NCBI GenBank assembly: GCA_963514625.1
Contig: CAUPTB010000001.1
Coordinates: 57,890-121,889, forward strand
Direction: 5' to 3'
Origin: an uncultured Candidatus Saccharibacteria bacterium
Lineage (GTDB): Bacteria; Patescibacteriota; Saccharimonadia; Saccharimonadales; Saccharimonadaceae
Length of the DNA stretch: 64,000 bases
This document shows positions 19,437-42,904 of this stretch, piece after piece. Position 1 is the first letter of the stretch. Each line of letters starts with the position of its first letter. The position numbers were made by a program, and so were the translations under genes. Below the pieces are notes generated by a model. The model made no database searches. It saw only the letters and a list, made by a program, of their open reading frames with translations, and was not told the origin of the DNA.

Positions 19437-19444
19437 ACTCACTC

Positions 19445-19473: not shown

Positions 19474-19476
19474 AGT

Positions 19477-19806
19477 TTAGAAAAATGATAGTTGGTTGGC
19501 TTTAACGAGTTCTTCTTGGTCAGTTTTCTCGCCTAGGATGATGAACATAGTAGCGAACTGACGCTCGGTGACGAGAAGCGCCCGGATAGAGCCTTTGGTA
19601 TCCGCTGGTGTATTTTTAGTGACTCTGGTGAGATGCTTCATGGCTACGTCTCGATTAGGGCACAGCCTGCTGTAGACGCTGAATTGGAGCATATCAAAGC
19701 CATCCCCAACTAAAAAGTTGCGGAATTGACTAGCTTGCTTGCGCTCAGCTTTCGTTCCTGTGGGCAAATCAAATAGTACCAACACACGCATATAACGGTA
19801 GCTCAT
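19477..19806 (-). CDS. cas2: CRISPR-associated endoribonuclease Cas2
   Basis: MSYRYMRVLVLFDLPT is a typical type II Cas2 N-terminus. The ORF-track N-terminal extension overlaps cas1 and was discarded. Confidence 0.9.
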   Translation of the reverse strand: MSYRYMRVLVLFDLPTGTKAERKQASQFRNFLVGDGFDMLQFSVYSRLCPNRDVAMKHLTRVTKNTPADTKGSIRALLVTERQFATMFIILGEKTDQEELVKANQLSFF

Positions 19807-19819
19807 GATTAAGATTAAC

Positions 19820-20716: not shown

Positions 20717-20726
20717 AGTCTCTAAT

Positions 20727-24101: not shown

Positions 24102-24149
24102 AACGTCATTATAACCTTTTCCGGTTATGTGGTACATAGGTGCAAATAG

Positions 24150-24276
24150 ACAAAGACACACAAAGATAATCCGCCTCACGAGGAGACGGAATTACTTTGC
24201 TTTAGTATTTCTACTAAATTATTATAGAAACCTAAGCAATTCAGATAGTTATACAATCATGCTCCCATGAGTGTAC
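24150..24276 (-). ncRNA. Predicted tracrRNA
   Basis: The anti-repeat at 24221-24257 (minus strand) is complementary to the plus-strand repeat transcript. It is followed by the hairpins UUUAGUA-GAAA-UACUAAA and CCGUCUC-CUCGU-GAGGCGG (24171-24189) and a U-rich tail. The promoter lies immediately upstream. The ends are approximate. Confidence 0.7.
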
Positions 24277-24310: not shown

Positions 24311-24756
24311 TAGCCGAGTGTCTTCTCGGGTTGGTCGGTGCTTATCGGTATCATGCCGGGCTTGCCCAGCACCCAGCGGGATGCATGATGCTCTGCTGTC
24401 CAGGCGAAAAGGTGCACAGTCATGTTTTGTCATAGTCAGCTAGCTTAGCTAACGCATCAGCTGGGCTGTCGGGCCTGCCCAGCTGATGCTAGTGAAATCA
24501 ACTTGCCATGATAAGTGTGATTACGCAACTTTCTTACTTGAGCGAGCATAGCACTAAGTATCCTGCTGGCTTTACTTTCCTGTCAAATGTGTCATGATAG
24601 TAGTGCTGTAGGTGGGTGCGGTGTACTTTATGATGAAGTGGATGGATGTGTCTGTGGTCTCGCCGGGTGCAGGTCTCTCCTGCTCCCCGTGAGGTCGCAG
24701 ACAGGCTGTGACCAAAACCGATGGCGTCGATAGATGTCATCAGAGAGGAGGCCGAC

Positions 24757-25795: not shown

Positions 25796-28726
25796 CTAAT
25801 GAAACCTGATCTCGTGAACTTGGGCGGCGGGTGGTGCTACCGAGGCCGGCTTATCCGGCTTGGCGGGCTGGCTTGGGTGCGGCTGAGGCAAGGGGCGATT
25901 CGGTCTGACGTAGCTGGTCGGTGAGCTTGGCTGGCTAACGGGAGCTGCGGGAGTCGGCTGGCTGGTCTGACCGCCTTTATCCGCCCCACGATTATGTTTG
26001 TTGGTTTTATTCTTATTTTTCTTGGGCTGATTCTTATTGCCTTGATTCTGACCGCCCCGACCACCCTGTCCTGCCTGATTACTACCGGAACGAGCCTTAT
26101 TGCTACCACCGCCACCGTTGCTATTGCCACTACTCTTACTGCTAGTTTCGTGAGTCGGCTCAATCTTCATGCTATCAGGGTCGCCAGCTTGGGCGGTCTG
26201 ACGGATCTGCGCCATCAGGCTGCTGATATTCTTCAGCTGGTTGGCGGTTGACTGAGCGGCGGCTTGCTGCTGCTCTTTTAGTGCTTTCTTCGCCTTGTCT
26301 CGGGCGGTTCTGGACATTAGCCCCATCGGTGGAGTGACCAGCTCGGCAATCTCTACCTCCACCTCCGCTTTGGGACGGGTGTAATTAGCCCTGGAGTGCT
26401 CGATGATTTGGTCGATGTAGCCCTTCCCCGCTTCCGGTAGCTTGAGGGTAGTGCCCGAGAAAGCAGGCATCTTCTCGCCGTTGATCATCATGCCGCAGAC
26501 GAGATGGCGATTATTCATCTGTAAGATGTCCTGCGCTTCGAAATTGGGGGCGAATTGCTGGGCTAAGATTGGTGCATCCTCCGGGCTGACTCGCATTGAG
26601 ACCATAGTGCCGACATTACCAAAGACAGCGTCTCGTACGGTATCTTCCATCTGAGAAATGTATTGGTTGGCGACGGTGAGGTTGAGTCCGTACTTACGAG
26701 CCTCGGACAAGATTACGGCGAAAGAGTCGGTGGCGAAGTTCTGAAACTCGTCGACGTATAGGTAAAAAGGTCGCCGATCTTCTATACGAGGGATATCCGA
26801 GCGACTCATGGCGGCTAACTGGATCTTGGTTACCAAGAAAGAGCCCAGAATGGCGGCGTTGTCTTCACCGATCAATCCCTTGGATAAATTAACGATCAGG
26901 ATCTTACCCTCGTCCATGATCTGGCGGATATTGAAGCTAGACTTGGGCTGTCCGATGATATTGCGGATGACCGGGTTAGCAACGAAAGCACCGACCTTAT
27001 TAAGCACTGGGGCAATCGCCTCTGAGACATAGCGCTCGTTCCAGCCGGCGAATTCGACTCGCCAAAATTGGAGCACCACGGTATCTTTGACTTGAGATAG
27101 CACCCGACTGCGGAAATCCTTATCGGTTAGCATGCGGTTGATATCCAGCATGGTGGTGTCGGGGTACTCCAGTAGAGCGAGCAGGGTGTGACGCAAGATA
27201 TACTCTAGTCGTGGACCCCAGCTCTCGCCGAACATCCGCTTCATCACCCCGATGATCTCTGAGCTGATATTATTGCGTTGATTCGGGTCGTAGACCTCCA
27301 TTGGGTTAAAGCCGATCGGGTGGTCGGTGTCGGCGGGGTTAAAGTAGACTACGTCATTAACTCGTGTCGGCGGGATAAACTTGAGGTTGTCAGTGGCGAA
27401 GTCGCCGTGTGGGTCAATGATGGCGTAGCCTTGGTTGTGGTAGATATCTGATAAGGCTAGTAGCTCAAGCAGACCAGATTTACCTGTACCGGTCTGTCCG
27501 ATGATGTACATATGACGGCTTCGGTCAGCTCGCAAGATGCCGAACTGCTTCTGCATACCTCGGAAGTTAGTCAGCCCGAAAGCACTGATATCTCGGTCGT
27601 GAACCGGGTCGCCATCAAGTACCGGCAGATTAGTCGGCGGCTCGGCGGTCTTAGAATTAGCCCAGACTACGCTAGGCGTCTCGACGTTCATGTGCGGTAG
27701 ATGAAAGACGCTGGCCAGCTCCTCAATATTTAAGATAAAGCCTGTGCCATCCGGGAAAGATCGCTTGGCGCAGAGGTCAAGCGCCGCCCGATCGTAGCGA
27801 GGCTGAGTAGCCAGCTTGAAGCCATTAAGGCTGGTCGAGTTAAACTGCTTAAAGGCACTCGCCACGGCATTCATCTGGATGCGAGCCGAGTCTTGGTCAT
27901 GTCCGAGGTAAGCTAGCCTGATGCAGACCTTGTAGCCCAGCTTCTGCGATTTCTTCTCCATCTCGCTAATCCGGAGCTTGTCACGGTCGGATAGCTCGGT
28001 ATTTTTGTCGTTCCCTTCAGGCGGCTGCCAGAGCGCCTCCAGTGCCTGGAGGACGTAGTAGAAAGCGCCCGAGCGGAGTGACGAGCCAAAGCCGCTACGA
28101 TAACGAGCGACGTACTTGGCACTATCTTTCTGCCAGCTATCCGGTATGGGTCGGACGAGGATCTGCACCCAGATCTCCTCGTCGTTGCTGCCCAGCTTGG
28201 TCAAGGCGGCAGTGATACCGGCTAATGGGTCAACGTCGAACGCCTGGAAAGTTCGGATGGGTAAGAATTCGTTATCGGTCAGGACCAGCTCATCAACTGC
28301 CGTGGCTCGGTGAGCATTGATACCGTCGGCGTAATCTTCCTCAGCCGGCTGGATCTGGACGGTCGGATACTGGGCGTAGATTTGCCCTTCGACGAAGTTC
28401 TGCAGATGCTTAGGGGTGCGGACGTAGAAGCGGATCTGACCGCCCACACTGGCGATCTCAAACGAGAGGTGCTCCTGAACGCCGGTGGCCCGGTGGAGCT
28501 CCTGCTTGTCGCGGAGGATGCCGTGCAAGGAAGCGAAGAGTTGTTCGGCAGAGAGCTCTTTCTTGTCGTTATCTCGAGGGATTTCTAGAGCCAGGAGGAC
28601 GTAGTCGTAAGCATCGCCGGGGTCGTTAAGGCTATGATAGTTGCGCCAGGTCAAGATGCCGAGAATGCCGACGAGAGGCATCCATATGTACCACTGAGTA
28701 AAGAAGGTAAACAGCCACTGTATCAT
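25796..28726 (-). CDS. Type IV secretion coupling-protein-like / HerA-FtsK-type ATPase with a long low-complexity C-terminal tail
   Basis: N-terminal TM. Walker A IIGQTGTGKSG and Walker B FYLYVDEFQNF. The roughly 170-aa C-terminus is G/N/Q/K- then P-rich. ATG at 28726. Confidence 0.7.
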   Translation of the reverse strand: MIQWLFTFFTQWYIWMPLVGILGILTWRNYHSLNDPGDAYDYVLLALEIPRDNDKKELSAEQLFASLHGILRDKQELHRATGVQEHLSFEIASVGGQIRFYVRTPKHLQNFVEGQIYAQYPTVQIQPAEEDYADGINAHRATAVDELVLTDNEFLPIRTFQAFDVDPLAGITAALTKLGSNDEEIWVQILVRPIPDSWQKDSAKYVARYRSGFGSSLRSGAFYYVLQALEALWQPPEGNDKNTELSDRDKLRISEMEKKSQKLGYKVCIRLAYLGHDQDSARIQMNAVASAFKQFNSTSLNGFKLATQPRYDRAALDLCAKRSFPDGTGFILNIEELASVFHLPHMNVETPSVVWANSKTAEPPTNLPVLDGDPVHDRDISAFGLTNFRGMQKQFGILRADRSRHMYIIGQTGTGKSGLLELLALSDIYHNQGYAIIDPHGDFATDNLKFIPPTRVNDVVYFNPADTDHPIGFNPMEVYDPNQRNNISSEIIGVMKRMFGESWGPRLEYILRHTLLALLEYPDTTMLDINRMLTDKDFRSRVLSQVKDTVVLQFWRVEFAGWNERYVSEAIAPVLNKVGAFVANPVIRNIIGQPKSSFNIRQIMDEGKILIVNLSKGLIGEDNAAILGSFLVTKIQLAAMSRSDIPRIEDRRPFYLYVDEFQNFATDSFAVILSEARKYGLNLTVANQYISQMEDTVRDAVFGNVGTMVSMRVSPEDAPILAQQFAPNFEAQDILQMNNRHLVCGMMINGEKMPAFSGTTLKLPEAGKGYIDQIIEHSRANYTRPKAEVEVEIAELVTPPMGLMSRTARDKAKKALKEQQQAAAQSTANQLKNISSLMAQIRQTAQAGDPDSMKIEPTHETSSKSSGNSNGGGGSNKARSGSNQAGQGGRGGQNQGNKNQPKKNKNKTNKHNRGADKGGQTSQPTPAAPVSQPSSPTSYVRPNRPLPQPHPSQPAKPDKPASVAPPAAQVHEIRFH

Positions 28727-28783
28727 CACCAGTTATCTTACCATATTTAGCGGGCGAATGTTTTAGGCTTGTACTAGTTCGCT

Positions 28784-29532
28784 AGAGCCCTCACTCTTCG
28801 CTCTATTATCATTTCCCTCAGACCCGCCTGACTGGCTCGTGCACTGCTGAGCTTCAAGCGCACACAGTCTTCAGGAAATGACGATGTAGATGAAGGACAA
28901 AAAGACACCCTTTATGTGCGCTAATGATTATATATGCCAGAGTAGCTCACCCAAGCTTCCGATGGCTGTTGATATGTCTATAATTTCCGGTCTCATTTCT
29001 TAGTCCAGCTTCAGTCAAAAATAGACTTTCTTAGTACGAGTAGTACAGTGTGGTTGACGAAGGCTGTTGATATATCAGTAAGCTTACCAGTGCACGTGGT
29101 AGTTTATACGGTGCCAAGCCTGAGGAGACCACCTGTACTACTCGTACAAACCTGGACTATACATAGAGGGAAATTATAGAATCTACCCTGATACAGAGCA
29201 TTCATAGTGTACATAGACGGCGTAGTGAGGTGCTAATGTAGGAGCGTGGTTGACGAAGGCTGTTGATATATCAGTAAGCTATCCAGTGCACATGGTAGTT
29301 TATACGGTGCCAACCTGTCCAGCGCCCAGCTGGATGGTAAAACAAAACAATCCGCACCAGATGAAGCTTGGCTTTACATTCGTTCTACACTGAGCAGTAT
29401 ATAGTGGATATCCGGCTGGACAGGCCCAGCAGATGCGTAAGTCTATTCAGATACAATTCAGGCCCATATTACACCCTAGTTCTTCTTACGCAATGCCAGC
29501 TCTATGCATCCTGCTGGGATGCTGGGGTCTGA
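28784..29532. repeat. Composite repeat block A (inverted relative to block B at 34926-35362)
   Basis: Segment-by-segment reverse-complement matches to 34945-35362, for example 28810-28900 vs 35245-35335, 29031-29117 vs 35061-35158, and 29416-29532 vs 34945-35045. It also holds an internal duplication (29050-29117 ~ 29246-29303) and a roughly 100-nt insertion (about 29321-29415). Confidence 0.85.
29031..29148. mobile_element. MITE-like element, internally deleted copy
   Basis: TTAGTACGAGTAGTACAG at 29031-29048 and CTGTACTACTCGTAC at 29133-29147 form terminal inverted repeats. The interior matches part of the 233-bp copy at 34926-35158 in the opposite orientation. Confidence 0.65.
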
Positions 29533-29661
29533 AGGGAATGATGACGAGACGAAGAGTGAGAGGTTGACTGGGTAGTAGAACTGAGGAGGCCATACGGTTT
29601 GCTCTGAGCTGTAGGACAAGATAGTGTTAACTAACCTCAAAGGTGATACTTGTGATGTAGC

Positions 29662-31974
29662 TTACGCTGCTTTCCTTCTGCCTCGTCGTCTGGCCGGGCG
29701 GGCGGGAGCGTCGGCGAGTAGCTGCCTAGCCTGCTCTTCCGTCAGAGATTTCGGGTCGGTATCTTTCGGGATCTTGGCATTCTTAGTACCGTCAGTGACA
29801 TATGGTCCGTAGCGACCATTCAGGACTTCAATCTCGCCCCAGCTGGCGATATGCTTGGCTGCCTCGGCCTCCAGCTTGGTTTGGTATAACTCTCTAGCCT
29901 TGGTTTCGCTGATTTCAAAGGGCGACTCCGGCTTGATGCTGACGAAGAGCTTACCTACCTTGATGTATGGACCGAAGCGTCCGATATTAGCGATGATTTC
30001 TTGTCCGTCAGCCGTCGTGCCGACTTTCCGAGGTAGCTGGAACATCTTGACGGCTTGCTCTAGAGTGACAGTGGCAATGCTTGCCCCCTCGGGCATATTG
30101 GCAAAGGTCACTTTGGCGTCTTCCTGAGAGCTATCACCTTTCTGAAGCATAGCGCCGTATGCCCCCATACGAGCATAGATGGGCTGGCCGTCCTTGGGGT
30201 CGGTGCCGACCAGTCGTTGACCGGCTACACTGGAACGCTCAATCTTATCGCTATCTTTGATCTTGTCGTGGAAGGGGTCGTAGAACCGGCGGAGCATTTT
30301 GACTTTATCCAGCTGATGGTCAGCTATCTGGTCAAGTTCGTTCTCGATGCCGGCAGTGAAGTCGTAGTCAACTATGTCGTTAAAATAGTCGACCAGGAAG
30401 TCGGAGAGGATGATGCCGCTATCGGTTGGTACTAGCTTGCCCTTGGTCGAGCCAGTTTTTTCGTGGACAGTCCGCTCACTCAACTGGTCGCCCTGGAGGA
30501 CTAGCTCGTTAACCGGTCGCTCTACCCCATCGCTGTCACCCTTCTTAGCGTAGCCTCGTAGCTGAATGTTGCTCAGGATGGTGGCGTAGGTGGAGGGGCG
30601 ACCAATCTCCAGTTCTTCCAACTTTTTAACCAGCGAGCCTTCGCTGTAGCGAGCCGGTGGTCGGCTGAAGGTCTGTCGGGCAACGATTTCGTTCGCCGTT
30701 ACGGCTTGACCGGTAGCTAAGTCGGGCAAGATCTCATCCTTGCTACTACCGTAGACCTTTAAGAAGCCGTCAAAAACCAGCACCTCCCCTTTAGCGGTAA
30801 ACTTGGGCTGGTGTCGGCTAATGTCGATGGTGATCGTCGTTCGGTCAATCTTGGCGTCAGCCATCTGAGTAGCCAGAGTGCGCCGACGAATCAGATCATA
30901 AAGCTTCTGGGCTCGGCTATCACCCGGTACGGATTCTCTGGCTATATCGGTCGGGCGGATGGCCTCGTGTGCTTCCTGGGCGCCGGCAGTCTTAGTAGTA
31001 AAGGTGCGGAATTGATGGTATCTATCGCCATAGGTCTTGCTAATATAGTCGGTCATCTGGGCCAGGGCTTGGTTGCTCAAGTTGACCGAGTCCGTTCGCA
31101 TATAGGTGATGTAGCCGCTCTGGTACAGCCCCTGGGCGATGCTCATGGTCGCCTTAGCGCTGTAGCCGAGGCGATTGTTGGCATCCTGCTGTAAGGTGCT
31201 AGTGGTAAAAGGTGGCAAAGGGTGTCTGGTGCCGGTCGTCTTTGCTATGTCGGCTACGGTGTATGTGCTGCCGGGTAGACCGGCCAGGAACTGCTTAGCC
31301 TGCTCTTTGTCGGCAAAGTCAGTGTCGAGAGTCGCCTTGAAGCTCTGACTGTCGGCATTAAACACACCGGTTGTCTTATAAATAGAGGTAGTTTGATAGT
31401 GCTCGATCTCTCGTTCCCGCTCGACCAGCAAGCGAACTGCCGGTGACTGGACTCGCCCGGCTGATTTGCCCCCCGGGACCTTACGCCAGACTACCGGGCT
31501 CAGCTCAAAGCCGACCAGCCTATCTAAGATCTGGCGAGCCTGCTGAGCATAGACCAGGTTCATATCTACTGTATGGGGGTGAGCCAGTGCCTCGGTGATA
31601 GCCTCTTTGGTGATCTCGTGGTAAGTAATGCGGTTAGTTTTAGCCGGGTCAAGCCCCAGCACCTGGCAGAGGTGCCAAGCAATCGCTTCCCCCTCACGGT
31701 CTTCATCTGAGGCCAGCCAAACGGTCTCAGCTTGCTTGACGGCGTCTTTCAGCTCTTTGACCACTTTTCGCTTCTCGGGGTCAATCTCATAAATAGTGGC
31801 GAAGTCGTGCTCGGTATCAATTGGCTTGACGCCGCCATTGGCTTTCTTAGCGATGGAGCGGATATGACCGATGCTGGCCATGACGGTATAGTCGCTGCCG
31901 AGGAAGCTCTCGATCTTCTTGGCTTTGGCGGGAGACTCGACGATAATCAGGTTCTTGATCTTGGTTGTTTTCAT
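29662..31974 (-). CDS. topA: DNA topoisomerase I
   Basis: Toprim LIIVESPAKAKKIE, DEDREGE and the active-site region YITYMRTDS. The start is set at MKTTKIKN (ATG 31974). Confidence 0.95.
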   Translation of the reverse strand: MKTTKIKNLIIVESPAKAKKIESFLGSDYTVMASIGHIRSIAKKANGGVKPIDTEHDFATIYEIDPEKRKVVKELKDAVKQAETVWLASDEDREGEAIAWHLCQVLGLDPAKTNRITYHEITKEAITEALAHPHTVDMNLVYAQQARQILDRLVGFELSPVVWRKVPGGKSAGRVQSPAVRLLVEREREIEHYQTTSIYKTTGVFNADSQSFKATLDTDFADKEQAKQFLAGLPGSTYTVADIAKTTGTRHPLPPFTTSTLQQDANNRLGYSAKATMSIAQGLYQSGYITYMRTDSVNLSNQALAQMTDYISKTYGDRYHQFRTFTTKTAGAQEAHEAIRPTDIARESVPGDSRAQKLYDLIRRRTLATQMADAKIDRTTITIDISRHQPKFTAKGEVLVFDGFLKVYGSSKDEILPDLATGQAVTANEIVARQTFSRPPARYSEGSLVKKLEELEIGRPSTYATILSNIQLRGYAKKGDSDGVERPVNELVLQGDQLSERTVHEKTGSTKGKLVPTDSGIILSDFLVDYFNDIVDYDFTAGIENELDQIADHQLDKVKMLRRFYDPFHDKIKDSDKIERSSVAGQRLVGTDPKDGQPIYARMGAYGAMLQKGDSSQEDAKVTFANMPEGASIATVTLEQAVKMFQLPRKVGTTADGQEIIANIGRFGPYIKVGKLFVSIKPESPFEISETKARELYQTKLEAEAAKHIASWGEIEVLNGRYGPYVTDGTKNAKIPKDTDPKSLTEEQARQLLADAPARPARRRGRRKAA

Positions 31975-32049
31975 TTGGTCAAGTATAGCACAATCAGAAA
32001 TCACCCCGACCGAACGAATCCGGTCGGGGCTTTGAGGGCTGGGGGGTAG

Positions 32050-32409
32050 TTACTCGACAACGACGGCCATTCCATCCAAACGGATGGAAAGATTTATCGC
32101 CTGACCGGTCTCCATGACCTGCCACCCAATTAGCATCACCCCATCGGAGTTGATGCGCAGGGCCCTTTTTCGATCCACCTTGGGTGGCTCAAGGTGGACA
32201 AGTTTAGAGCGGGAGGGTCTGCGTCCGCACTCTCCGTTGCGCCAGTCGAAGCGCACATAACGGTATCGCAGACCCTCGATCAGTTGGTATCCGCTCGTTT
32301 GAGCGAATACCGCCACTAACTCGTTGTGGGTTAGCCCCTCAACGAGTCTGCCATTTACCCGGATATCCACCAAAAGATCTCCGGGCTTAAGAGGTTTGCG
32401 GGGATTCAT
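32050..32409 (-). CDS. Hypothetical protein (119 aa)
   Basis: The ATG at 32409 is preceded by AAGGAGGGG. No motif recognised. Confidence 0.55.
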   Translation of the reverse strand: MNPRKPLKPGDLLVDIRVNGRLVEGLTHNELVAVFAQTSGYQLIEGLRYRYVRFDWRNGECGRRPSRSKLVHLEPPKVDRKRALRINSDGVMLIGWQVMETGQAINLSIRLDGMAVVVE

Positions 32410-32525
32410 TATCCCCTCCTTCCCCTCGATTTGGCTAGCGCATGGCGCTAGATTACCCCACTCTGAGGTAACAATCACTACTGTAATATTGCCTTTGGCA
32501 GTCGTCAAGCTTGAGCGACTTCCGG

Positions 32526-33404
32526 CTAGCGCTTGCCCCAGGTGTTGTTGCCCAGGGCTACGATGTAGCCGTTTAGCTCTAGCATGGTTAAGGCAAGGCT
32601 AAACTGACTGGTGCTGAGACCGCTCTTGCTCAGTAGGCGGTCGCCATCGCTTTCACCCTGAACGATCAGGTCGTAGATGGTCTGACTGTCAGGCGAGTCG
32701 AAGCGAACCTGAGCGACTTCTTTGGTTTGGCGGTCGGGCTGGTCTTCTGTCTTAGCGAGTGGCAGGCGATCTAAGATGTCCTGCGCTGTGAGTACCGGGC
32801 CGGCACCTTGGGCGATCAATCTATTGCAGCCGGTCGATAGCGGCGAGGTAATGTTGCCTGGCACCGCCATCACCTCTTTACCCTGGGTCAAGGCGTGCGA
32901 GGCGGTATTGAGTGTACCGGAGCGCTCGCCCGCCTCGACCACCACTACGATATCGGCGAGAGCGCTGATCAAACGGTTGCGCTCCAAGAACTGATGAGGT
33001 AAGACCGGCGCCTCGGGCGGATACTCACTGATCAAGGCACCACCTGCCTGGACGATGCGCTGAGCTAGAGTGCGATTGGTCTGCGGGTAGATATGAGCCA
33101 GTCCATTACCCAAGACAGCTACGGTCGTGCCGCCGGCGTCGAGACAAGCTCGGTGAGCCAGCCCGTCATGACCAATGGCCAACCCGCTGACGATGACTAC
33201 TCCGTGCCGAGCTAACTCGCCGGTGATCCGGGCGTTGACTGCTCTGCCATAGCTGGTCGGTTTGCGACTACCGACGACGGCGACGGTCGGTGTGAGCGGT
33301 GGGACACTGCCGATGTACCACAGCTTCTTGGCCGGCTTGTCAATGACGGTCGTCCGCTGGAGAAAATCGTTGTCATGAGGGAGTATTTGCTTGATGTTAT
33401 CCAT
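32526..33404 (-). CDS. dprA: DNA processing protein DprA
   Basis: VVGSRKPTSYG, GLAIGHDGLAHRA, VAVLGNGL, the Rossmann-like DprA core and a C-terminal winged-helix-like tail. The start is ATG 33404 or GTG 33431. Confidence 0.9.
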   Translation of the reverse strand: MDNIKQILPHDNDFLQRTTVIDKPAKKLWYIGSVPPLTPTVAVVGSRKPTSYGRAVNARITGELARHGVVIVSGLAIGHDGLAHRACLDAGGTTVAVLGNGLAHIYPQTNRTLAQRIVQAGGALISEYPPEAPVLPHQFLERNRLISALADIVVVVEAGERSGTLNTASHALTQGKEVMAVPGNITSPLSTGCNRLIAQGAGPVLTAQDILDRLPLAKTEDQPDRQTKEVAQVRFDSPDSQTIYDLIVQGESDGDRLLSKSGLSTSQFSLALTMLELNGYIVALGNNTWGKR

Positions 33405-33420
33405 TATCCTGCTAAAGTAG

Positions 33421-33449
33421 TTGACAATCACGACAAAGCGTGCTAATAT
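33421..33449 (+). promoter_or_regulatory. Near-consensus sigma70 promoter (plus strand)
   Basis: TTGACA (33421-33426), a 17-nt spacer, then TGC-TAATAT (extended -10, 33441-33449). Confidence 0.65.
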
Positions 33450-33455
33450 ATCAGC

Positions 33456-33740
33456 GTTATCGGGTGATAGCCACTGCTAACGCCCGACTAGCACATTATA
33501 CCCCCTATCATAACACTAATTAGTGTTAGGCTACGTGCAGACTCGAAGTATTCTACCCTCCACTTTTAGCTATCGCTTCGGCGACAGCTAGTCGGCACGT
33601 ATCTAACCCTCTTGACCGGCGAGCCCCAAGTGTGAGGTGGGTTACGCTTACTGGTTGTCAGTAGCCGGAATGGTGCGTCGAGAGGTCGAATAGCCCGCTA
33701 CAGAAGCGATGCCCACCCTTGCTTCTGGGCGGGCTTTTTG
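33456..33740 (+). ncRNA. Candidate structured ncRNA of unknown class (about 285 nt)
   Basis: Bounded by the promoter at 33421-33449 and a strong terminator, with no ORF of 60 aa or more on either strand. Internal helices: AACACTA-AT-TAGTGTT, a UUCG-capped TCGC/GCGA stem, and a 9-bp long-range pairing CCGACTAGC (33484-92) / GCTAGTCGG (33587-95). Confidence 0.5.
33692..33740 (+). terminator. Strong intrinsic terminator
   Basis: AGCCCGC-UA-CAGAAGC-[13-nt loop]-GCUUCUG-G-GCGGGCU followed by UUUUU. Confidence 0.8.
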
Positions 33741-33757
33741 ATTAGTGATTTAAGAGC

Positions 33758-34831
33758 TTATTCGTCTGCCGGGCGATCTTCCAGTAGTTTCTTGCCTTTG
33801 ATCTCGTACTTTAGCCCAGTTAGGTCGCTGGTCATGTAGTCGTCATTAAGCAAGCCGACGAAGGTCTCGATGTCTCGGCTATCCATAATGATGATAGCGC
33901 CTTCGTCAGTGGTCATCAGATCCAGCCCCATCTCTTCGCCGTAGTCAACCAACTCTTCCTGAGTCTTGGTGCCGAGTTCTAGATTCTGGAGTTTGTTGAT
34001 CAGCTTAGGATGACCCGACACCATGGTATTGAGGTCTTGTCCTTCCGGGAAGTTAAGCCGGTAGCGAGACAAGATCTGCTCAACCTTCTTGTCGGCGATA
34101 GCCTGCTTCTTGTAATTGTAGCCAAACATCGCCTCAAATTTCTTCGGGGCGAAGGCGAAGATTCGTCGGTCGGCGTCATTGTCGCCATTGCCGGCGATCA
34201 GAACCTGGTTGTCGAGCGGGATCTTAAAGGCGCTAGCAGCGCTAAACTGTTGCAGCTTGCCATCCTCGCCGATCTCCCAGGCAGTTCGTTCATTGAGGCT
34301 GCCTGACCCGGCGATCTGTTTACAAACATAGAAAGGGGTAATCTCTGGGTGGGTAAAACGGGCTGTTATTAGCTTGATATTCTTGAGCTCGTGGTCGTAC
34401 TCGTTAAAAGTCTCGACGCTAGTGCGCTCATGCTCGATGACATTTAAGATATGTCCGGCATTACTTACCTGCCCGCAAGTCGAATAGAGTAAGACCCCGG
34501 GCTCACTCTCGGACTGTTCGTAAGCTCGCACTTCTAGCCCTAGCCCGGCGCCTTTCTCGATTTCGCTGAGTAGGTCAACGATGAAGACAGGGGCGACTTG
34601 GGGTTGGAGAGCATTAGCGACGGCTAGATGATAAACGGTATAGTGCTTGTTGATCAGGAAGAGCTCAACCTTCAGGTCGTTCTTAAGGCGAGCTAGTTGA
34701 TTTGCCCAGGCGAAGAGGTCAAAGCTTGACTGGGCGGCGGAGGTTGAGGTCTCAGTGGTCTCGGGTGTGTCGCCGGTTTTGTCGCTGGGTGCCGATGGGG
34801 CTTGGCTAGCTAGATCAGGGTCATTTTCCAT
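33758..34831 (-). CDS. Uncharacterised 357-aa cytoplasmic protein (possibly DUF4868/KwaB-like, unverified)
   Basis: The ATG at 34831 (MENDPDL) lies 7 nt after TATAAT. The longer ORF-track N-terminus runs into the MITE-like repeat and was discarded. C-terminal motif LLNDDYMTSDLTGLKYEIKGKK. Confidence 0.65.
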   Translation of the reverse strand: MENDPDLASQAPSAPSDKTGDTPETTETSTSAAQSSFDLFAWANQLARLKNDLKVELFLINKHYTVYHLAVANALQPQVAPVFIVDLLSEIEKGAGLGLEVRAYEQSESEPGVLLYSTCGQVSNAGHILNVIEHERTSVETFNEYDHELKNIKLITARFTHPEITPFYVCKQIAGSGSLNERTAWEIGEDGKLQQFSAASAFKIPLDNQVLIAGNGDNDADRRIFAFAPKKFEAMFGYNYKKQAIADKKVEQILSRYRLNFPEGQDLNTMVSGHPKLINKLQNLELGTKTQEELVDYGEEMGLDLMTTDEGAIIIMDSRDIETFVGLLNDDYMTSDLTGLKYEIKGKKLLEDRPADE

Positions 34832-34896
34832 GCTGGCAATTATAGCATAATGACTCCCAGGTATGTCTGGTAGACACAAGAGCAATGGAGCATGGC

Positions 34897-35213
34897 CTGT
34901 AATTTCCCTCCACGCATAACTTGAGTTAGTACGAGTAGTACAGGTGGTCTCCTCAGACCCCAGCATCCCAGCAGGATGCATAGAGCTGGTGTTGCGTAAG
35001 AAGAACTAGGGTGTAATATAAGCTCAAATTGTACTTGGATAGACTTACGCATCTGCTGGGTGCTGGACAGGTTGGCACCGTATAAACTACCACGTGCACT
35101 GGATAGCTTACTGATATATCAACAGCCTTCGTCAACCACACTGTACTACTCGTACTAAGAGCGTCTACCTTTGACTGAAGCTTGACTAAGTAATGAGACC
35201 GGGGAAATTATAG
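34897..35213. mobile_element. MITE-like element, full copy (core 34926-35158) with outer GGGAAATTA modules
   Basis: Perfect 18-bp TIRs: TTAGTACGAGTAGTACAG (34926-34943) and CTGTACTACTCGTACTAA (35141-35158). The flanking modules CTGTAATTTCCCTCC (34897-34911) and GGGGAAATTATAG (35201-35213) are also inverted. There is no transposase ORF. Confidence 0.7.
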
Positions 35214-35362
35214 ACAACACCATAAATCACACCAAGGGTGCATATTGTCCTTCATCTACATCGTCATTTCCTGAAGACTGTGTGCGCTTGTAGCACAGCA
35301 GCACACGAGCCAGCCAGGCGGGTCTGAGGGAAATGATGATGTAGATGAAGAATGAGAGCTTT
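34926..35362. repeat. Composite repeat block B (inverted partner of block A)
   Basis: See block A. The outermost module GGGTCTGAGGGAAATGATGATGTAGATGAAGAATGAGAGC (35320-35360) matches the reverse complement of 28784-28826 and the direct copy at 29526-29567. Confidence 0.85.
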
Positions 35363-35455
35363 AGTAATGGGCGGTTCAGTTAGTCAGGTTGCAACAAAGG
35401 AAGCGATAATGTAGATAAAGAATGATGGCTTGGGTAACTTGGTCGTGTGTATTTG

Positions 35456-36097
35456 TTAATCGTTTAATTTCCCCCGGAGATAACTCATTACTTTTCGGGG
35501 TGTGATAGTGATAGTTTCATCCGTCGCAGCGGCAACCGCACGATTGACGCTGTTTGAAAAGCAGATGTAAGTTGTTTTGCATTTGCGCTTTCTAATTTTA
35601 TGATAGCTTGGGCATAAATCCGTGTCGGAGCTGACAGATATAATATTTACATTTTCTACTTCGTACGATAATTCAAGCATACCCAGTGCCATTCGAACGT
35701 CGACGCCTTTCTCTTGTAAAACATCTTGAGTCTTATGGCAGTGGTTGCATTTTTTACCTTCTTTTACTTTCAAATTACCAGCTTTAATGTAATTAATATG
35801 CTGACTCTTTAACATTGCAACCCAGCGACGTGAATTTTCTTTAATTCGGTCTATCCGTTTCCGGATTTTTGGGGATGGAGTATAGCCTTTTGACGTTTTG
35901 ATTTCGGATGCATAGTAGTTGATCTCGACTCCATTAATTCCTAAAGTGTCCTCGATTAGACCACGTACATCCAATGAAAAGTAGATATTCTTGTCTGCGA
36001 TAACCCCCTGATCGTGTAGTAGCTCGGCTACTCTTTGGCGAAAATTTTCGCCGTCAATAAAAACCATTCTTCTATTATCAACTGAATTTTTAGACAT
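35456..36097 (-). CDS. NYN/LabA-like (PIN-fold) domain protein
   Basis: MVFIDGENF, QEKGVDVRMALGML, SSDTDL and a CNHC motif. AT-rich gene. RBS GGAGG. Confidence 0.65.
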   Translation of the reverse strand: MSKNSVDNRRMVFIDGENFRQRVAELLHDQGVIADKNIYFSLDVRGLIEDTLGINGVEINYYASEIKTSKGYTPSPKIRKRIDRIKENSRRWVAMLKSQHINYIKAGNLKVKEGKKCNHCHKTQDVLQEKGVDVRMALGMLELSYEVENVNIISVSSDTDLCPSYHKIRKRKCKTTYICFSNSVNRAVAAATDETITITPRKVMSYLRGKLND

Positions 36098-36199
36098 CAC
36101 GCCTCCCCTTCCATCATAACAAAAGCCCCGCTGAGGATGTTATCCAACACGGGGTGATGCACTATCATACTAGCAAACGTGAACAAAAATGTCAATGCC

Positions 36200-36685
36200 C
36201 TATCGCTTAAGTGTCGGATGTTCAGCTAGCACCGGGTCGGTAAGCTTGAGTTGGCGGGCTCGGTTTGCCCAGCGGTCGGCTAGTTCGTTCAGCTCCGTAC
36301 CAGCATGCCCCCTGGTCCAGACCAGCTCCGCCTGTGACTCCTGATAGAGCCGGTATAGCTCGGTGACCAAGTCGAGATTCTTGATCTCTCCGCCGGGTTT
36401 GCGCCAGCCTTTTGCCTGCCAACCCGGTGCCCACTTGGTCGCCACATTGATCCAGAATTGGCTGTCAGTGACGATCCGGCACGGTTTGCCGTCGGCGTCT
36501 CTCAGAGCGGTGATGATCGCTCTCGCTTCCATGCGAATATTGGTCGTTTGGTCACTCCCAATAGGTGACCCCGTCGCTTCCCCGCCGATTAGGTAAGGCT
36601 GACCGTCTTTGATCACGGCGAAGCCGCCCTGCCCCGGGTTAGGCACGGTGCTACCGTCGGTAAAATAGTTCGTCAGACTAGGCAT
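36200..36685 (-). CDS. rnhA: Ribonuclease HI
   Basis: YFTDGS, NIRMEARAI, IVTDSQ and WTRGHAGTELNELADRWA. The start is set at MPSLTNYF (ATG 36685), 4 nt after the upstream gene's stop. Confidence 0.85.
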   Translation of the reverse strand: MPSLTNYFTDGSTVPNPGQGGFAVIKDGQPYLIGGEATGSPIGSDQTTNIRMEARAIITALRDADGKPCRIVTDSQFWINVATKWAPGWQAKGWRKPGGEIKNLDLVTELYRLYQESQAELVWTRGHAGTELNELADRWANRARQLKLTDPVLAEHPTLKR

Positions 36686-36689
36686 CGTA

Positions 36690-38633
36690 TTACCAGTCAC
36701 TACCGCCACCGCCGCCTGAGCCGCCACCCGAGAAGCCGCCGCCGCCATCGGAACTACCACCCGAGAAGCCACTATCAGAGAAGCCGCCGCTATTAGAATC
36801 AGGTGATGAGGCTATGCTGGCCGACATCTCAGATAGGCCGTCGGTGACGAAGTCTACCATGGTGCTGTAGCTAAATGTCTCGCTCGAGTCATACCAATCA
36901 GCCGGCTGGAGAGATATCCCCTCAAACTTGTCGACCCATTTCTTATGCACCCCTAGGACGTAGGCGTAAGGTATGACGTCATAGAAAAGGGTCGGCGTCT
37001 CAGCTAGGAGTGCCTCCAAGCGAGGCTTATCGACTATCTCGATAAACTCCCTAAAGCCCATGATCTCGCCCTTGACCCGGTAGCCGTCTTTCGTTCTGGG
37101 CTTGATGCTACCGGTGAGGCGGGCGCCAATGGTCAAGATAGTTATCGCTACGGTGGTGACGGCAATGATGGGTTGCTTATGGGCGAACAAACTGATGGCG
37201 AAGACCGGTACCAAGAAGATCAAGATACCGAATCCCTTTGAGATCATAGCACTAATCTGCCAATCGGTTGGCTGAAGCATCAGAGCCATCGGTACGATCA
37301 AGAGTGAGAGACTGCCCAGTAGTAGCATCAGCGCTTTTTCGGGATTGTCTTCTAGAGTGGTGGCAAAGCAAGCGCAAGCCAGGATAATAGCTAGAGCAAC
37401 TACCCGGCCGAGACGTAGCAGTGTCTTGGTGAGGCTCTTCTTAGCGAAGAGATCAGTCTTGAGGTGGCCTCGGCTGATAGTGGAGATAGTAGCAGATACG
37501 GTCTTATAAAACTCCCCTTCCAGCTCCGCCTTAGCTACCTTGCTCGGGTGATCATTATTAAACAACCCATTCATAAAGATCCGCTCCGACTCATTCTGAC
37601 CATCATAATCTTTTAGCTTAGTCAGAGTGAAGTTCTCACCATCAATGTCAATCGTCAGATAGCCCTTATTAGCCAAGTAGACTACCATTGAGGCGGCATT
37701 CTTCCTCTTGATCTCACCCTTGTCGGCGAAGGCGACTTCAAGGCTATTTAGTCCGCCCGGGGCGGTATACTGAACGACCGGAGTGATCTTGTACTTCTCC
37801 TGAGTCACGACAAAGATAGAGGCGATCAGCGTGATAATGCTGATGGCGATCGGTATGACGAAGACATACTTAGCTAAGAAGACCCGGAAAGGATCTTCCT
37901 TAAAGTAGCCCTGTGGCAACTCTAGTCTGATAGTTAATGCTTGCTCGGCAGTCAGTGGAGCGGTGGTATGACCAGTAATCTCCTTGTCTTTGACGCTATA
38001 CTCGACGATATCACTGCCGCTACGCATACCATAAGCACCGGTCGAAAAGCCCGGCTTGCCGTCGAACTCCTGAGGCATGGTGATATGGAAATCAACCTTA
38101 GTGATGCCGGTGTTCCAGCCGGTACCGATGATATTAAAGTAAAACTCGTCAGCCTGGCTTAGCTGGTCGGTACCGAGGTCGTAGTCGTAGCTGAGGCGAT
38201 AAGTCTCGTTGGTCTTAGCATAGGCGTTGGGGTCACCTATCTTGATGTTAGTGAAGTTGCTGCTCTCGCTGGTGGTGAAGCGGTGGCTTAGTACCTTGAG
38301 GTTGCTGATCTTGGCGTTGACGGTTGACTTAGAGCCGTCCATCCTGGCGACGTGGTTGACTTTAGCCAGGCTACGGACGATGCCATGACGCTGTTGGTGA
38401 AAAGTGGCTTTGATCGTCTCTTCGATGTGGAGCTGATTGAACTGATTGACCGTGATATCGACATCGTAGTTATCAATGGTATACGCCGGAGTGGCGGTTG
38501 AAGTCCGGCTGCTACCTGAGCCATTCGTGTCCGGGGTCCCGGTGGCGCCAGCTGGGCTAGCCATGGTCACGATAGAAGCTACCGTGAGAATGATGATTAG
38601 ACTAAATAGCTTGATTCGCTGCAACAATCTCAT
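36690..38633 (-). CDS. DUF2207-like membrane protein, paralog 1 of 3, with a Gly-rich C-terminal tail
   Basis: Signal/TM, a beta-rich ectodomain (YTIDNYDVDITVNQFNQLHIEETI), several TMs, and the C-terminus GGGFSGGGSGGGGGSDW. Confidence 0.75.
   Translation of the reverse strand: MRLLQRIKLFSLIIILTVASIVTMASPAGATGTPDTNGSGSSRTSTATPAYTIDNYDVDITVNQFNQLHIEETIKATFHQQRHGIVRSLAKVNHVARMDGSKSTVNAKISNLKVLSHRFTTSESSNFTNIKIGDPNAYAKTNETYRLSYDYDLGTDQLSQADEFYFNIIGTGWNTGITKVDFHITMPQEFDGKPGFSTGAYGMRSGSDIVEYSVKDKEITGHTTAPLTAEQALTIRLELPQGYFKEDPFRVFLAKYVFVIPIAISIITLIASIFVVTQEKYKITPVVQYTAPGGLNSLEVAFADKGEIKRKNAASMVVYLANKGYLTIDIDGENFTLTKLKDYDGQNESERIFMNGLFNNDHPSKVAKAELEGEFYKTVSATISTISRGHLKTDLFAKKSLTKTLLRLGRVVALAIILACACFATTLEDNPEKALMLLLGSLSLLIVPMALMLQPTDWQISAMISKGFGILIFLVPVFAISLFAHKQPIIAVTTVAITILTIGARLTGSIKPRTKDGYRVKGEIMGFREFIEIVDKPRLEALLAETPTLFYDVIPYAYVLGVHKKWVDKFEGISLQPADWYDSSETFSYSTMVDFVTDGLSEMSASIASSPDSNSGGFSDSGFSGGSSDGGGGFSGGGSGGGGGSDW
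37468..37703. repeat. Gene-conversion tract (copy in paralog 1)
   Basis: 236 nt identical to 39442-39677 except for one A/G difference, while the flanking paralog sequence is clearly diverged. Confidence 0.9.
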
Positions 38634-38678
38634 ACTCTCCTCCTTAAGGTCATTATACGCTTAGCTGGCCGGATCTGC

Positions 38679-40784
38679 CTACCAGTCACTACCGCCACCA
38701 CCGCCTGAGCCGCCACCCAAGAAGCCGCCACCCGAGCCATCGCTCAAGGAGTTTGTCATTAGGTCTATCGCAGAGGAGTAGCCACTGAAGCTGGCCGACA
38801 TTCCGGCTAACCCCTCAGTGACGAAGCTTGCCATGATGCCGTAGCTGAAAGCTTCGCTGGAGCTGTACCAGTCTGCCGGCTGGAGGGCTATACCTTCAAA
38901 CTTGTTGACCCATTTCTTATGTACGTCCAGGACGTAGGCGTAAGGGATAATGTCGTAGAAGAGGGTTGGCGTCTCGACTAGGAGTGCCTCCAGGCGAGGC
39001 TTATCGACCGTCTCGATGAACTCCTTAAAGCCCATGATCTCGCCCTTGATGCGATAGCCGTCCTCGGTTCTGGTGATGACATCTCGGGTGATATAGGCCC
39101 CGATCATGATAAAGATTGATGATATGCCGGTGATTATAGCTGTCGGATAGCGGAAGTATAATGCCTGTAAGACGACAGCAGGGGTGATAGCGACGATGAT
39201 ACATAATATCTTGGTAAATACCGGACTGAACTGCTTGGTAGTTGGCTGTAATACGAAGAATAGGGGGAAGACCGTGAAGGCGATTATAAAAGCCATGCTG
39301 CCCAGCGCTTCGCTGGGGTTTTGCTCTAGCAAGGTGGCTAAGCCGGCGCAAATCAGCAGGATGGCGATGGCAACCCATTGGATCACCTTGAGGATAGTCT
39401 TGACTCGGTTGTGCTTCTCGAAATACTTGGTCTTGAGCCGACCTCGGCTGATAGTGGAGATAGTAGCAGATACGGTCTTATAAAACTCCCCTTCCAGCTC
39501 CGCCTTAGCTACCTTGCTCGGGTGATCATTATTAAACAACCCATTCATAAAGATCCGCTCCGACTCATTCTGACCATCATAATCTTTTAGCTTAGTCAGA
39601 GTGAAGTTCTCACCATCAATGTCAATCGTCAGATAGCCCTTATTGGCCAAGTAGACTACCATTGAGGCGGCATTCTTGTGAGGAATGGTGTTGTCATTAG
39701 CGAAGACAAGCTCAAGGCTATTCAGTCCGTCGGGGGCAGTGTATTGGATGACCGGAGTGGACTTACTCTTTTCCTTTCTCAGGATCGTGATCGAAAGTAC
39801 TAAGGCGATGATGCCGGTGATTACCGGTACGATGAAGACGAACTTGGCTATCGTCGTCTTGATCGGATCCAGCTTGAAATAGCCCTGGGGTAGTTCCAGT
39901 CGGATAGTCAGCGCCTCGCCGGCGAGCAACCTGCCGGTGGTATGACCGGCGATTACCCGACCGTTGACATTGTATTTGACGATGTCGCTACCGCTACGTT
40001 CGCCGTAAGAGCCGGTCGAAAAGCCGGGCTTCCCGCTGAACTCCTCGGGCATAGTGATGCGGAAGGTGACTCTCCCGATATTAGTATTCCAGCCGGTGCC
40101 GATGATATTAAAGTAAAATTCATCGCCACTGCTGAGTGGATCAGTCCCTAGGTCGTAGTCGTAGCTGAGGCGATAGGTCTCGTGACGCTTGGCATAGGTG
40201 AGAGAACTGCCAAGCTTGATGGAGGTACTGTCACTGCCTTCCCGAACGGCAGAGCTGTGGCTAGATACTTTGACATTACTAATGACGGCGTAGACGGTTG
40301 ATTTCGAGCCATTGACTCTGGCTACGTGGTTAACTTTGTTGATAGTGCGAATGATGCCATGGCGATACTTATTGAAGGTGGCCTTGATCGTCTCCTCGAT
40401 ATGAACCTTGTTGTATTTATCTACCGTAGCCTTGACGTCGTAAGCATCAATGACGTAAGGGTCAACATCGCTTGACTCGTCGTCGGATATCTCATCATCG
40501 GACACCTTAGCGTCGTTATGGGTGTTGGTCGGCTGAGCCGGCTCGACTGACGACTGATCGGAAGTCGGGGTGTCGGGAGCAGTCGTACTGGTCGTATGTC
40601 CCGCCTGCGAATAGGATGATGAGCTGGATGGATCAGACGAACCGGGGCTAGTCTGTTGGTGTTGCCCACTAGCGGGTCGGTTCGTTGTGCTATTGGCGCT
40701 AGCCGAGCCTGGTGTGATGACGGTGGTCGCTATCGCCAAAACGAGCGCCAAGATTAGTGTAGTGATTCGTCGTAATAATCTCAT
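38679..40784 (-). CDS. DUF2207-like membrane protein, paralog 2 of 3
   Basis: The start is set at MRLLRRITTL (ATG 40784, GAGGGA 6 nt upstream). It has an S/T/P-rich linker, the same ectodomain blocks, and the C-terminus GGGSGGGGGSDW. Confidence 0.75.
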   Translation of the reverse strand: MRLLRRITTLILALVLAIATTVITPGSASANSTTNRPASGQHQQTSPGSSDPSSSSSYSQAGHTTSTTAPDTPTSDQSSVEPAQPTNTHNDAKVSDDEISDDESSDVDPYVIDAYDVKATVDKYNKVHIEETIKATFNKYRHGIIRTINKVNHVARVNGSKSTVYAVISNVKVSSHSSAVREGSDSTSIKLGSSLTYAKRHETYRLSYDYDLGTDPLSSGDEFYFNIIGTGWNTNIGRVTFRITMPEEFSGKPGFSTGSYGERSGSDIVKYNVNGRVIAGHTTGRLLAGEALTIRLELPQGYFKLDPIKTTIAKFVFIVPVITGIIALVLSITILRKEKSKSTPVIQYTAPDGLNSLELVFANDNTIPHKNAASMVVYLANKGYLTIDIDGENFTLTKLKDYDGQNESERIFMNGLFNNDHPSKVAKAELEGEFYKTVSATISTISRGRLKTKYFEKHNRVKTILKVIQWVAIAILLICAGLATLLEQNPSEALGSMAFIIAFTVFPLFFVLQPTTKQFSPVFTKILCIIVAITPAVVLQALYFRYPTAIITGISSIFIMIGAYITRDVITRTEDGYRIKGEIMGFKEFIETVDKPRLEALLVETPTLFYDIIPYAYVLDVHKKWVNKFEGIALQPADWYSSSEAFSYGIMASFVTEGLAGMSASFSGYSSAIDLMTNSLSDGSGGGFLGGGSGGGGGSDW
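39442..39677. repeat. Gene-conversion tract (copy in paralog 2)
   Basis: See 37468-37703. Confidence 0.9.
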
Positions 40785-40833
40785 CTTCATTCCCTCATAT
40801 TTTATTTTAAGCGTTAGATCGGCCGGAGTGACT

Positions 40834-42894: not shown

Positions 42895-42904
42895 ATTCCC
42901 TCCT

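Follow-up and report, generated by a model that had tools for sequence, protein, structure and literature searches.

Three kinds of small repeat come nearest to the sequences described here, namely the BOX elements of pneumococci, REPINs, and miniature inverted-repeat transposable elements (MITEs). BOX elements of Streptococcus pneumoniae (boxA-boxB(n)-boxC) are non-coding, intergenic, multi-copy and modular, show a stable predicted fold, occur in both orientations and have no known transposase of their own. REP and REPIN elements are mobilised by RAYT transposases of the Y1/HUH type, and no target-site duplication is expected upon their insertion. Here, we analysed a 64,000-nucleotide stretch of DNA from an uncultured Candidatus Saccharibacteria bacterium (contig CAUPTB010000001.1, positions 57,890 to 121,889; hereafter the window), in which two blocks of related sequence, block A and block B, bracket a 5.4-kb segment carrying topA and dprA. 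Both blocks are independent copies, and no dedicated pair, of a new, clade-restricted, modular and strand-specifically folding non-coding repeat. Membership of this repeat in any of the three kinds is not established, because a fixed target duplication was not found and neither a parent element nor a RAYT gene was seen in the surveyed loci.

The initial annotation had described blocks A and B as reverse complements of each other. In line with this, a repeat search and blastn identified five inverted segments of 60-131 nucleotides (nt) with 82-97% identity between the blocks (Table 1), far above chance for the 8.5-kb region searched (28000-36500). The blocks lie where they had been placed, although their true limits are somewhat wider, extending from approximately 28771 to 29615 for block A and from 34897 to 35424 for block B. 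Likewise, the internal duplication reported for block A is present (29047-29117 vs 29243-29313, 71 nt, 94%), as is an insertion of about 100 nt bounded by the motif CCCAGC at 29325-29330 and 29425-29430. This insertion is lacking at the orthologous site in L134 (labels of this form denote the loci or genomes compared with the window), and its sequence, 29331-29430, represents a repeated module found at no fewer than 20 other loci, at times in tandem. The terminal inverted repeats ascribed to block A were also recovered, at 28790-28825 and 29525-29560, with a length of 36 nt (78% identity) instead of the 42 nt originally given; they correspond to the 5' arm of a hairpin termed H1 and to a solo H1-type arm, respectively. 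Moreover, neither block contains a convincing open reading frame (ORF), as had been noted before: none of 60 or more amino acids (aa) is present in block A, and block B harbours only ORFs of 62 and 70 aa within repeat sequence.

The anatomy of the family was deduced from an anchored alignment of 126 copies, using the sets A1 (41 complete short units) and A2 (87 distinct cores) as well as the covariance model R1. The core unit has a length of 202-208 nt in 41 of 42 copies (about 204 nt) and is closed in A1 by an outer stem, P1, of approximately 13-15 bp (CTGTAATTTCCCC / GGGGAAATTACAG). Inside P1 follow a hypervariable 5' segment of about 45 nt, the stem P2 of about 20 bp, a multi-helix junction of about 83 nt that is invariant at most alignment columns, and a variable 3' segment of about 19 nt. 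P2 occurs as three sequence types unrelated to one another; for types 1 and 2, compensation in the partner strands is complete, and the pairing of type 3 was read by eye in one full copy. In the long form, the core contains an additional stem-loop of about 110 nt, which occurs in two sequence variants. The hairpin H1 comprises about 100 nt, with arms of 29-36 nt around a loop of about 43 nt. Its arm variants are compensated, its internal loop is conserved, and a semi-conserved leader precedes it. For 99 of 120 H1 copies a core is located downstream on the same strand at one of two preferred distances, and the 'distant' pairs of H1 and core are all truncations at contig ends. This same-strand coupling, together with the leader, therefore defines a composite of fixed polarity, leader-H1-(type 2 core)-core unit, which is about 430-850 nt in size and whose ends, leader-H1 and P1', are unlike. 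Expansion stem-loops and the 100-nt module, the latter in variable copy number, are optional additions.

Read on the minus strand from 35424 to 34897, block B is a canonical long-form composite. Its expansion domain A spans 34950-35071, and R1 matches 35040-35159 with 64.7 bits (E=2.7e-13). Block A is a composite with three changes: a truncated type 3 fragment has been added, the short unit is followed by a second core with an expansion domain, and a solo H1 arm is present. The H1 hairpin of block A yielded an nhmmer match at 28791-28913 (E=1.7e-29), matches 35245-35340 in inverted orientation and contains k-mers common to 40-70 of 119 loci. The 5' context of the type 3 fragment recurs in about 20 core matches elsewhere. 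The short-form unit is matched by R1 at 29030-29152 with 146.9 bits (E=2e-34) and belongs to both A1 and A2, and the 100-nt module lies within expansion domain A. In addition, the junction of the first unit, the spacer and the second core recurs in L090 (95%) and at the orthologous locus in L134 (93%), and the solo arm differs by one base from the outer H1 arm in L132. A third family locus is cut by the start of the window, where blastn indicates a partial copy at 1-58; this copy abuts the stop codon of the ORF at 41-1546.

The proposal that the blocks represent a lineage-specific, structured intergenic repeat family was substantiated; the nhmmer and R1 matches are confined to one oral TM7 clade, and the stems covary. 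A 32-mer from the core, located in the duplicated module, is matched exactly at least 119 times in a collection of species-representative genomes. Among the matches listed, all derive from metagenome-assembled genomes (MAGs) of Candidatus Saccharibacteria, including Nanoperiomorbus periodonticus HOT_356, and many are situated at contig ends. A slightly degenerate 23-mer matches more than 120 metagenome contigs, which is a lower bound, and nhmmer revealed 447 core and 280 H1 matches in 2.5 Mb of retrieved loci. Single MAGs contain at least 10 cores, counted in truncated samples, and the 64-kb window contains at least three loci. The TopA proteins nearest to that of the window (97-98% identity) are encoded by about 30 genomes of Candidatus Saccharibacteria, that of Candidatus Nanoperiomorbus periodonticus HOT_356 (G5) among them, and the genomes bearing core or H1 show this same TopA identity (Nanoperiomorbus/G5-like). 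Correspondingly, neither nhmmer nor R1 detected the element in 52 TopA loci (590 kb) of Saccharibacteria with a TopA identity of at most 76%. Full-text literature searches yielded no description of such repeats in Saccharibacteria. At the gathering threshold, Rfam identified only a tRNA-Leu in the whole window, and at E<=10 both blocks gave only chance matches of the miRNA/snoRNA type, without a match to a model for ribozymes, introns, riboswitches or omega/bridge-type RNAs.

A phage origin was rejected, since viral contigs and phage records contained no matches to the repeat family. The presence of a gene for a TrwB/TraG-type coupling protein (T4CP) beside block A likewise raised the idea of a conjugative plasmid or of a leading-region single-stranded DNA (ssDNA) promoter. 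This was dismissed because the order DprA-TopA-T4CP reflects chromosomal synteny conserved across Saccharibacteria and the window carries housekeeping genes, because plasmid records matched topA alone and lacked the repeat family, and because copies lie between housekeeping genes genome-wide.

The fold of the element appears to be under selection on one strand. In A2, 91.7% of the cells pair in the structure comprising P2, P3 and P5, as compared with 34-40% after a shift of the 3' partners by 1-3 columns. Double-sided changes were observed in nine A2 pairs (89 cells), and none of 500 shuffles equalled the observed values. Moreover, G·U pairs by far exceed A·C pairs, both in the core (292 vs 35) and in H1 (99 vs 8). 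As copies are found in both genomic orientations, this asymmetry indicates selection on the fold of one element-defined strand. Compensatory pairs and a strand-specific wobble in core and H1 are the signature of a structured RNA, and ssDNA would give the same signal; the sequence comparison thus points to a strand that folds as either of the two. The RNA fold predicted for the whole of block B reaches -182.9 kcal/mol (z=-8.1) and its complement is equally stable (z=-8.4), so a single sequence cannot discriminate between the strands.

Conservation is strongest in the junction, which is more conserved than the coding DNA of the same genomes (about 94% identical, about 6% different), and the segments adjacent to it differ by about 30% between copies, as estimated by eye in A1. 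Judging from the sequence, two tandem sheared G·A pairs flanking a C-G pair could arise between the junction strands GACGA and GAGGA. The 5' and 3' hypervariable segments do not co-vary, with duplex energies of -7.5 kcal/mol for own pairs vs -7.1 kcal/mol for cross pairs, and guide-like hypervariable loops that pair mutually were therefore rejected. A hammerhead or other self-cleaving ribozyme was considered in view of a CUGAGGA and a CGAA box-like motif in the junction, yet the order of the strands, inspected by hand, fits no permutation, and Rfam gave no ribozyme match at E<=10.

Copies of the element have housekeeping genes as neighbours, e.g., recJ, holA, clpP, tig, hisS, recO and pilD. 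The orientation of the core relative to the flanking genes is unbiased, the four possible arrangements being represented by 28, 34, 29 and 17 copies, and a role as a cis-regulatory leader was rejected on these grounds. Between close relatives the copies vary in presence, orientation and module content, and so do the spacers that contain them in length. Among genomes with 97-98% identical TopA the gap between the genes for TopA and the T4CP ranges from about 555 to 877 nt, and it amounts to 933 nt in the window. At this site the composite is reversed in L121, L131, L132 and L141, with different filler on both sides. Furthermore, three sites that are otherwise conserved carry a whole composite (383-693 nt) in some genomes and none in others, with a difference of 5 nt or less at the junctions. 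Two individual sites are worth recording. Locus Y, a clean presence/absence site about 45 nt upstream of a tRNA gene and adjoining the TATAAT-type promoter of the neighbouring gene, is filled in L218 (10182-10763), L237 (6989-7508) and L273 (1073-1656) and empty in L073 (4486-4489). At locus X, the copy directly follows an intrinsic terminator.

Compared with BOX elements by general properties, a sequence relationship not being expected, the element is likewise non-coding, intergenic and multi-copy, with one module of variable number, a stable predicted fold and copies in both orientations. However, it is larger (about 430-850 nt), has the fixed polarity leader-H1-core, the near-invariant 83-nt junction and covarying closing stems, and resides in a Saccharibacteria clade. 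The resemblance to REPINs lies in H1, a hairpin of about 100 nt, within the range of about 70-110 nt, that is built from two inverted arms of about 30 nt with compensating changes, as well as in the dispersed, intergenic distribution and the importance of single-strand folding; background on the REPIN properties is given, in part, in PMC3116915. In contrast to REPINs, the arms of H1 are longer than a REP, and H1 is nearly always coupled to the 200-nt core, which REPINs lack. Among the recurrent neighbours at the loci around repeat or TopA matches, no transposase domain was detected and no RAYT gene was identified.

MITEs such as the Neisseria Correia elements share with the family the small size, the non-coding and multi-copy nature, terminal inverted repeats (P1, in the core unit), presence/absence polymorphism and nested or chimeric copies, and one filled/empty pair is compatible with a TA duplication. 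Unlike in MITEs, target-site duplications of a constant length are lacking, the surveyed loci revealed no parent insertion sequence that shares the ends of the element, conservation peaks in the interior and not at the ends, and folding is strand-specific. In its strand-specific hairpins, the tolerance of G·T, the lack of a target duplication and its distinct left (H1) and right (P1') ends, the element further resembles palindrome elements derived from IS200/IS605, which move by ssDNA transposition. However, neither a tnpA nor a tnpB gene was seen, the three mapped sites share no conserved target tetranucleotide, there is no bias relative to gene direction, which is a rough proxy for the direction of replication, and the structures are far larger than the end hairpins of IS200/IS605.

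With slightly better than even confidence, we consider the element to be a non-autonomous mobile or recombining element, for which we infer mobilisation in trans. Such an element would act via the fold of one particular strand, either an RNA transcript or ssDNA, and the invariant junction would most likely serve as the recognition site of a trans-acting factor. Copies would spread to and be lost from intergenic sites and would continually be reshuffled by recombination, both between copies and at short shared motifs. The element would thus be non-autonomous and selfish, and its consequences would be broken assemblies and locally hypervariable spacers in lieu of a programmed inversion. Several results weigh against this interpretation. 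Target-site duplication is inconsistent at the three filled/empty sites (possibly TA, none, and possibly CAG), and the other polymorphisms are replacements that leave remnants of modules and not clean insertions. ORF clustering and Pfam searches of the surveyed loci revealed no transposase, recombinase or reverse transcriptase beside the copies or among recurrent neighbours. An autonomous parent element was sought and none was seen, as no pair of H1 and core encloses an ORF in 2.5 Mb of loci. Consensus scans in and beside the element gave no convincing promoter or terminator. Moreover, the copies are non-independent samples, so that the covariation statistics inflate the number of evolutionary events, and an invariant internal junction together with covarying stems fits a functional RNA better than a cut-and-paste MITE, for which conserved ends would suffice.

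A tentative possibility is that the composite of H1 and core belongs to an undescribed structured nucleic-acid class, being either an RNA of about 200-470 nt or a mobile element that is recognised via the multi-helix fold of one strand. As an RNA, it might occur tens of times in each reduced Saccharibacteria genome (<1 Mb); as a mobile element of a new kind, it might employ retro- or ssDNA transposition. In either version the element would function chiefly through the invariant 83-nt junction, which may contain tandem G·A pairs.

The main alternative, though doubtful, holds that the copies are structured non-coding RNA genes with a function in the cell, from each of which an RNA of about 200-470 nt, comprising the H1 and core domains, would be made from its own strand. 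The invariant junction would serve for protein binding or catalysis, and copy-specific properties would come from the hypervariable segments. The strand-specific fold and element-intrinsic polarity, the tightly fixed unit length, and the invariant junction, covarying stems and optional expansion stem-loops, as known from many large RNAs, are all in accord with this explanation, as are the tandem sheared G·A pairs that the strands GACGA and GAGGA might form, judging from the sequence, and an orientation independent of the neighbours, as expected for stand-alone RNA genes. However, a conserved promoter or terminator was not found, the hypervariable segments fall into a few shuffled classes without mutual co-variation, and the family is limited to one narrow clade and has no Rfam relative. 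In addition, many copies are truncated, chimeric or nested, and their presence and orientation vary between near-identical genomes, which would be unusual for needed genes. It is unlikely that the copies are cis-acting structural elements of the REP/BIME or BOX type, kept in intergenic DNA for hairpins that would terminate transcripts or make them more stable, insulate neighbouring genes, or provide binding sites for nucleoid or topology proteins. Their strictly intergenic position, often at gene ends as for the copies at the window start and at locus X, the very stable folding of both strands and the modular build with a variable number of modules would suit this role. For such purposes, however, a stable hairpin would suffice, and neither an invariant 83-nt junction nor a preferred strand would be needed; moreover, the copies show no orientation preference towards flanking genes, and the elements are missing from sister Saccharibacteria in which the gene order is the same.

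The initial annotation had further suggested that the blocks could drive inversion of the 5.4-kb segment, which contains a KwaB-like gene, dprA, a 152-aa ORF and topA. Inverted repeats bracket this segment as in an inverton, and 60-131 nt of inverted homology with 82-97% identity suffice in principle for RecA-dependent inversion. Nevertheless, a programmed or recombination-driven inversion is highly improbable. All 26 contigs that span a junction, 17 independent ones across TopA-T4CP and 9 across the RNase H/NYN-KwaB-like boundary, are collinear with the window and keep its gene order and strands, and none carries the second orientation; the order DprA-TopA-T4CP is kept even in distant Saccharibacteria devoid of the repeats. 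Nor is the relative orientation of the cores at the two sites conserved, as they are inverted in L122, L125, L128, L129, L132 and L148 and direct in L127, L131 and L121. Recombination between direct copies would delete topA and dprA, and the arrangement therefore cannot serve inversion. Pfam searches of the ORFs between 19.4 and 44.3 kb revealed Cas9, Cas1, Cas2, Hsp20, T4CP, TopA, DprA, NYN, RNase H, DUF2207 and EngA, and no recombinase or invertase gene nearby. Unlike an inverton, the repeats form a dispersed family and the segment contains housekeeping genes. Since all genes between 25.8 and 47 kb are encoded on the minus strand, a flip would presumably reverse the genes of the segment relative to their neighbours. 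The inverted placement of two copies around topA and dprA is incidental. The annotation had also warned of hot spots for assembly error, and this concern is justified: about 10 genomes contain contigs of 4.8-6.2 kb that run from block to block, many other copies are located at contig ends, and the repeats therefore break short-read assemblies. The window itself begins inside a copy. That its contig contains collapsed or chimeric repeats is nonetheless barely credible. Each of the odd junctions of block A, like the arrangement of block B, is seen again in assemblies made independently, among them at the orthologous locus of L134, L135 and L125; these junctions are therefore not artefacts, and the flanking genes are intact and syntenic.

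The remaining features of the window concern the genes around the blocks (Table 1). Along the window the order is T4CP, TopA, the 152-aa ORF, DprA, the weakly KwaB-like gene, an NYN-domain gene, RNase H and three DUF2207 paralogues, and Pfam agrees with the identity previously given to topA and dprA. Further genes of the window are cas9-cas1-cas2, accompanied by a repeat array, and those for Hsp20, EngA and a peptidase (Pfam), and by virtue of this gene content it is chromosomal. The G+C content drops from about 54% to about 45% across both blocks. The 152-aa ORF between dprA and topA (32050-32508) has no Pfam match and is much more divergent in relatives, with a median nucleotide identity of 82.8% and a protein identity of 69-96%, than its neighbours (about 94%). 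The gene at 33758-34981, initially listed as unknown, shows a sub-threshold Pfam match to KwaB of the Kiwa defence system (E=2e-4, 21.7 bits vs a cut-off of 26.3). As the first ATG of its longest ORF (407 aa), at 34981, falls within the block B repeat, the real start is probably located downstream; an ATG near 34834, which is preceded by TATAAT, is a likelier start and would yield a near-leaderless mRNA. The NYN-domain gene (35456-36100) forms an island of low G+C content (about 38.5% vs about 54%). Only some related genomes (L128, L148, L318 and L286) have it between RNase H and block B, whereas L127, L130, L132 and L137 lack it, and it looks like a recent gene gain or loss beside the repeat. 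The three tandem DUF2207 membrane-protein paralogues (36690-42996) possess Gly/Pro-rich C-termini and constitute direct repeats with a period of about 1974-2150 nt and 64-93% identity. A type II CRISPR-Cas locus occupies 19204-24179 on the minus strand, with cas9 (20727-24179, HNH and RuvC domains), cas1 (19820-20749), cas2 (19477-19869) and a short array whose period is 66 nt (19204-19439). Upstream of cas9, a non-coding stretch of 540 nt contains fragments akin to the expansion domain of the repeat family.

Within the 5.4-kb segment, the candidate non-coding RNA proposed earlier is well supported and is distinct in position from the blocks. The 326-nt gap upstream of dprA is conserved and contains compensated pairs: its median identity across 32 related loci is 98.7%, as compared with about 94% for the flanking genes, and it likewise precedes dprA, on the same strand, in about 30 distant Saccharibacteria. 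Compensatory changes keep 12 of 23 predicted pairs, and 96.9% are paired vs 30-51% in slid controls. The element has no Rfam match at E<=10 and no ORF longer than 33 aa. RNase P was rejected as its identity, given that no P4 motif lies nearby and Rfam yields no match. Judging from these comparisons, it probably represents a hitherto undescribed structured RNA or leader that occurs throughout the phylum.

Table 1. Positions of the repeat family, its inverted matches and neighbouring features in the window.
Feature	Position	Strand	Remarks
Third family locus, 3' end of core unit	1-46	+	comprises the 3' strand of P2, a variable segment and P1' (35-46); truncated at the window start
Expansion-domain-related fragment, CCCAGCTGATGCTAG...	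24330-24500	not assigned	non-coding, upstream of cas9; k-mers common to at most 22 loci
TrwB/TraG-type coupling protein (T4CP)	25796-28729	minus	adjoins block A; Pfam
Block A leader	28771-28789	+	short, semi-conserved, before H1; the 20-25 nt before H1 are semi-conserved in 87 distinct H1 copies
Block A hairpin H1	28790-28900	+	5' arm 28790-28823, 3' arm 28867-28896, inner hairpin in loop
Block A truncated 'type 3' core fragment, CCAGAGTAGCTCACC...CGATGGCTGTTGATATGT	28937-28977	+	direct repeat; fused to next unit
Block A complete short-form core unit	28978-29179	+	P1 28978-28988/29168-29179; P2 29034-29055/29127-29147; near-invariant junction 29056-29126
Block A second core and expansion domain A	29243-29534	+	core without own closing stem 29246-29313, then expansion domain A 29314-29532; R1 56 bits
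Block A solo H1-type arm, inverted	29525-29560	+	joined to core at shared motif GGGTCTGA(G/A)GGA
Block A fragment like 3' half of 'type 2' core, CTGAGGAGGCCATACGG..CTCTGAGCT	29581-29615	+	compared with type 2 cores of A2 and orthologous spacers
TopA	29662-32004	minus	Pfam-confirmed
DprA	32526-33431	minus	Pfam-confirmed
Conserved non-coding element	33432-33757	minus	between KwaB-like gene and dprA
Block B long-form core unit	34897-35213	minus	P1 35201-35213/34897-34908; P2 35134-35155/34929-34949; junction 35072-35133
Block B hairpin H1	35245-35356	minus	arms 35322-35356 and 35249-35278; nhmmer 35355-35234, E=4.6e-25
Block B degenerate solo H1 arm and leader	35357-35424	minus	arm 35391-35424, leader 35357-35390; order arm-leader-H1 also in L068, L042, L128, L148
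Inverted pair	28987-29117 / 35072-35202		131 nt, 94%
Inverted pair	29425-29537 / 34948-35060		113 nt, 89%
Inverted pair	28805-28900 / 35245-35340		96 nt, 94%
Inverted pair	29243-29330 / 35055-35142		88 nt, 97%
Inverted pair	29120-29179 / 34897-34956		60 nt, 82%

Taken together, topA and dprA are not located within an invertible cassette, contrary to what had been suggested as possible. Saccharibacteria are ultra-small episymbionts with streamlined genomes, in which one would not expect the burden of a repeat that accounts for about 2% of the window and has tens of copies in each genome. The family also accounts for the numerous contigs into which genomes of this oral clade fall on assembly, with breaks at the same sequences. 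As the repeat-bearing spacers differ between near-identical strains, they represent useful strain markers and sites of rearrangement. Finally, for the candidate phyla radiation, the invariant, strand-specifically folded junction with its covarying stems is a tangible candidate for either a new RNA or a new mechanism of mobilisation.

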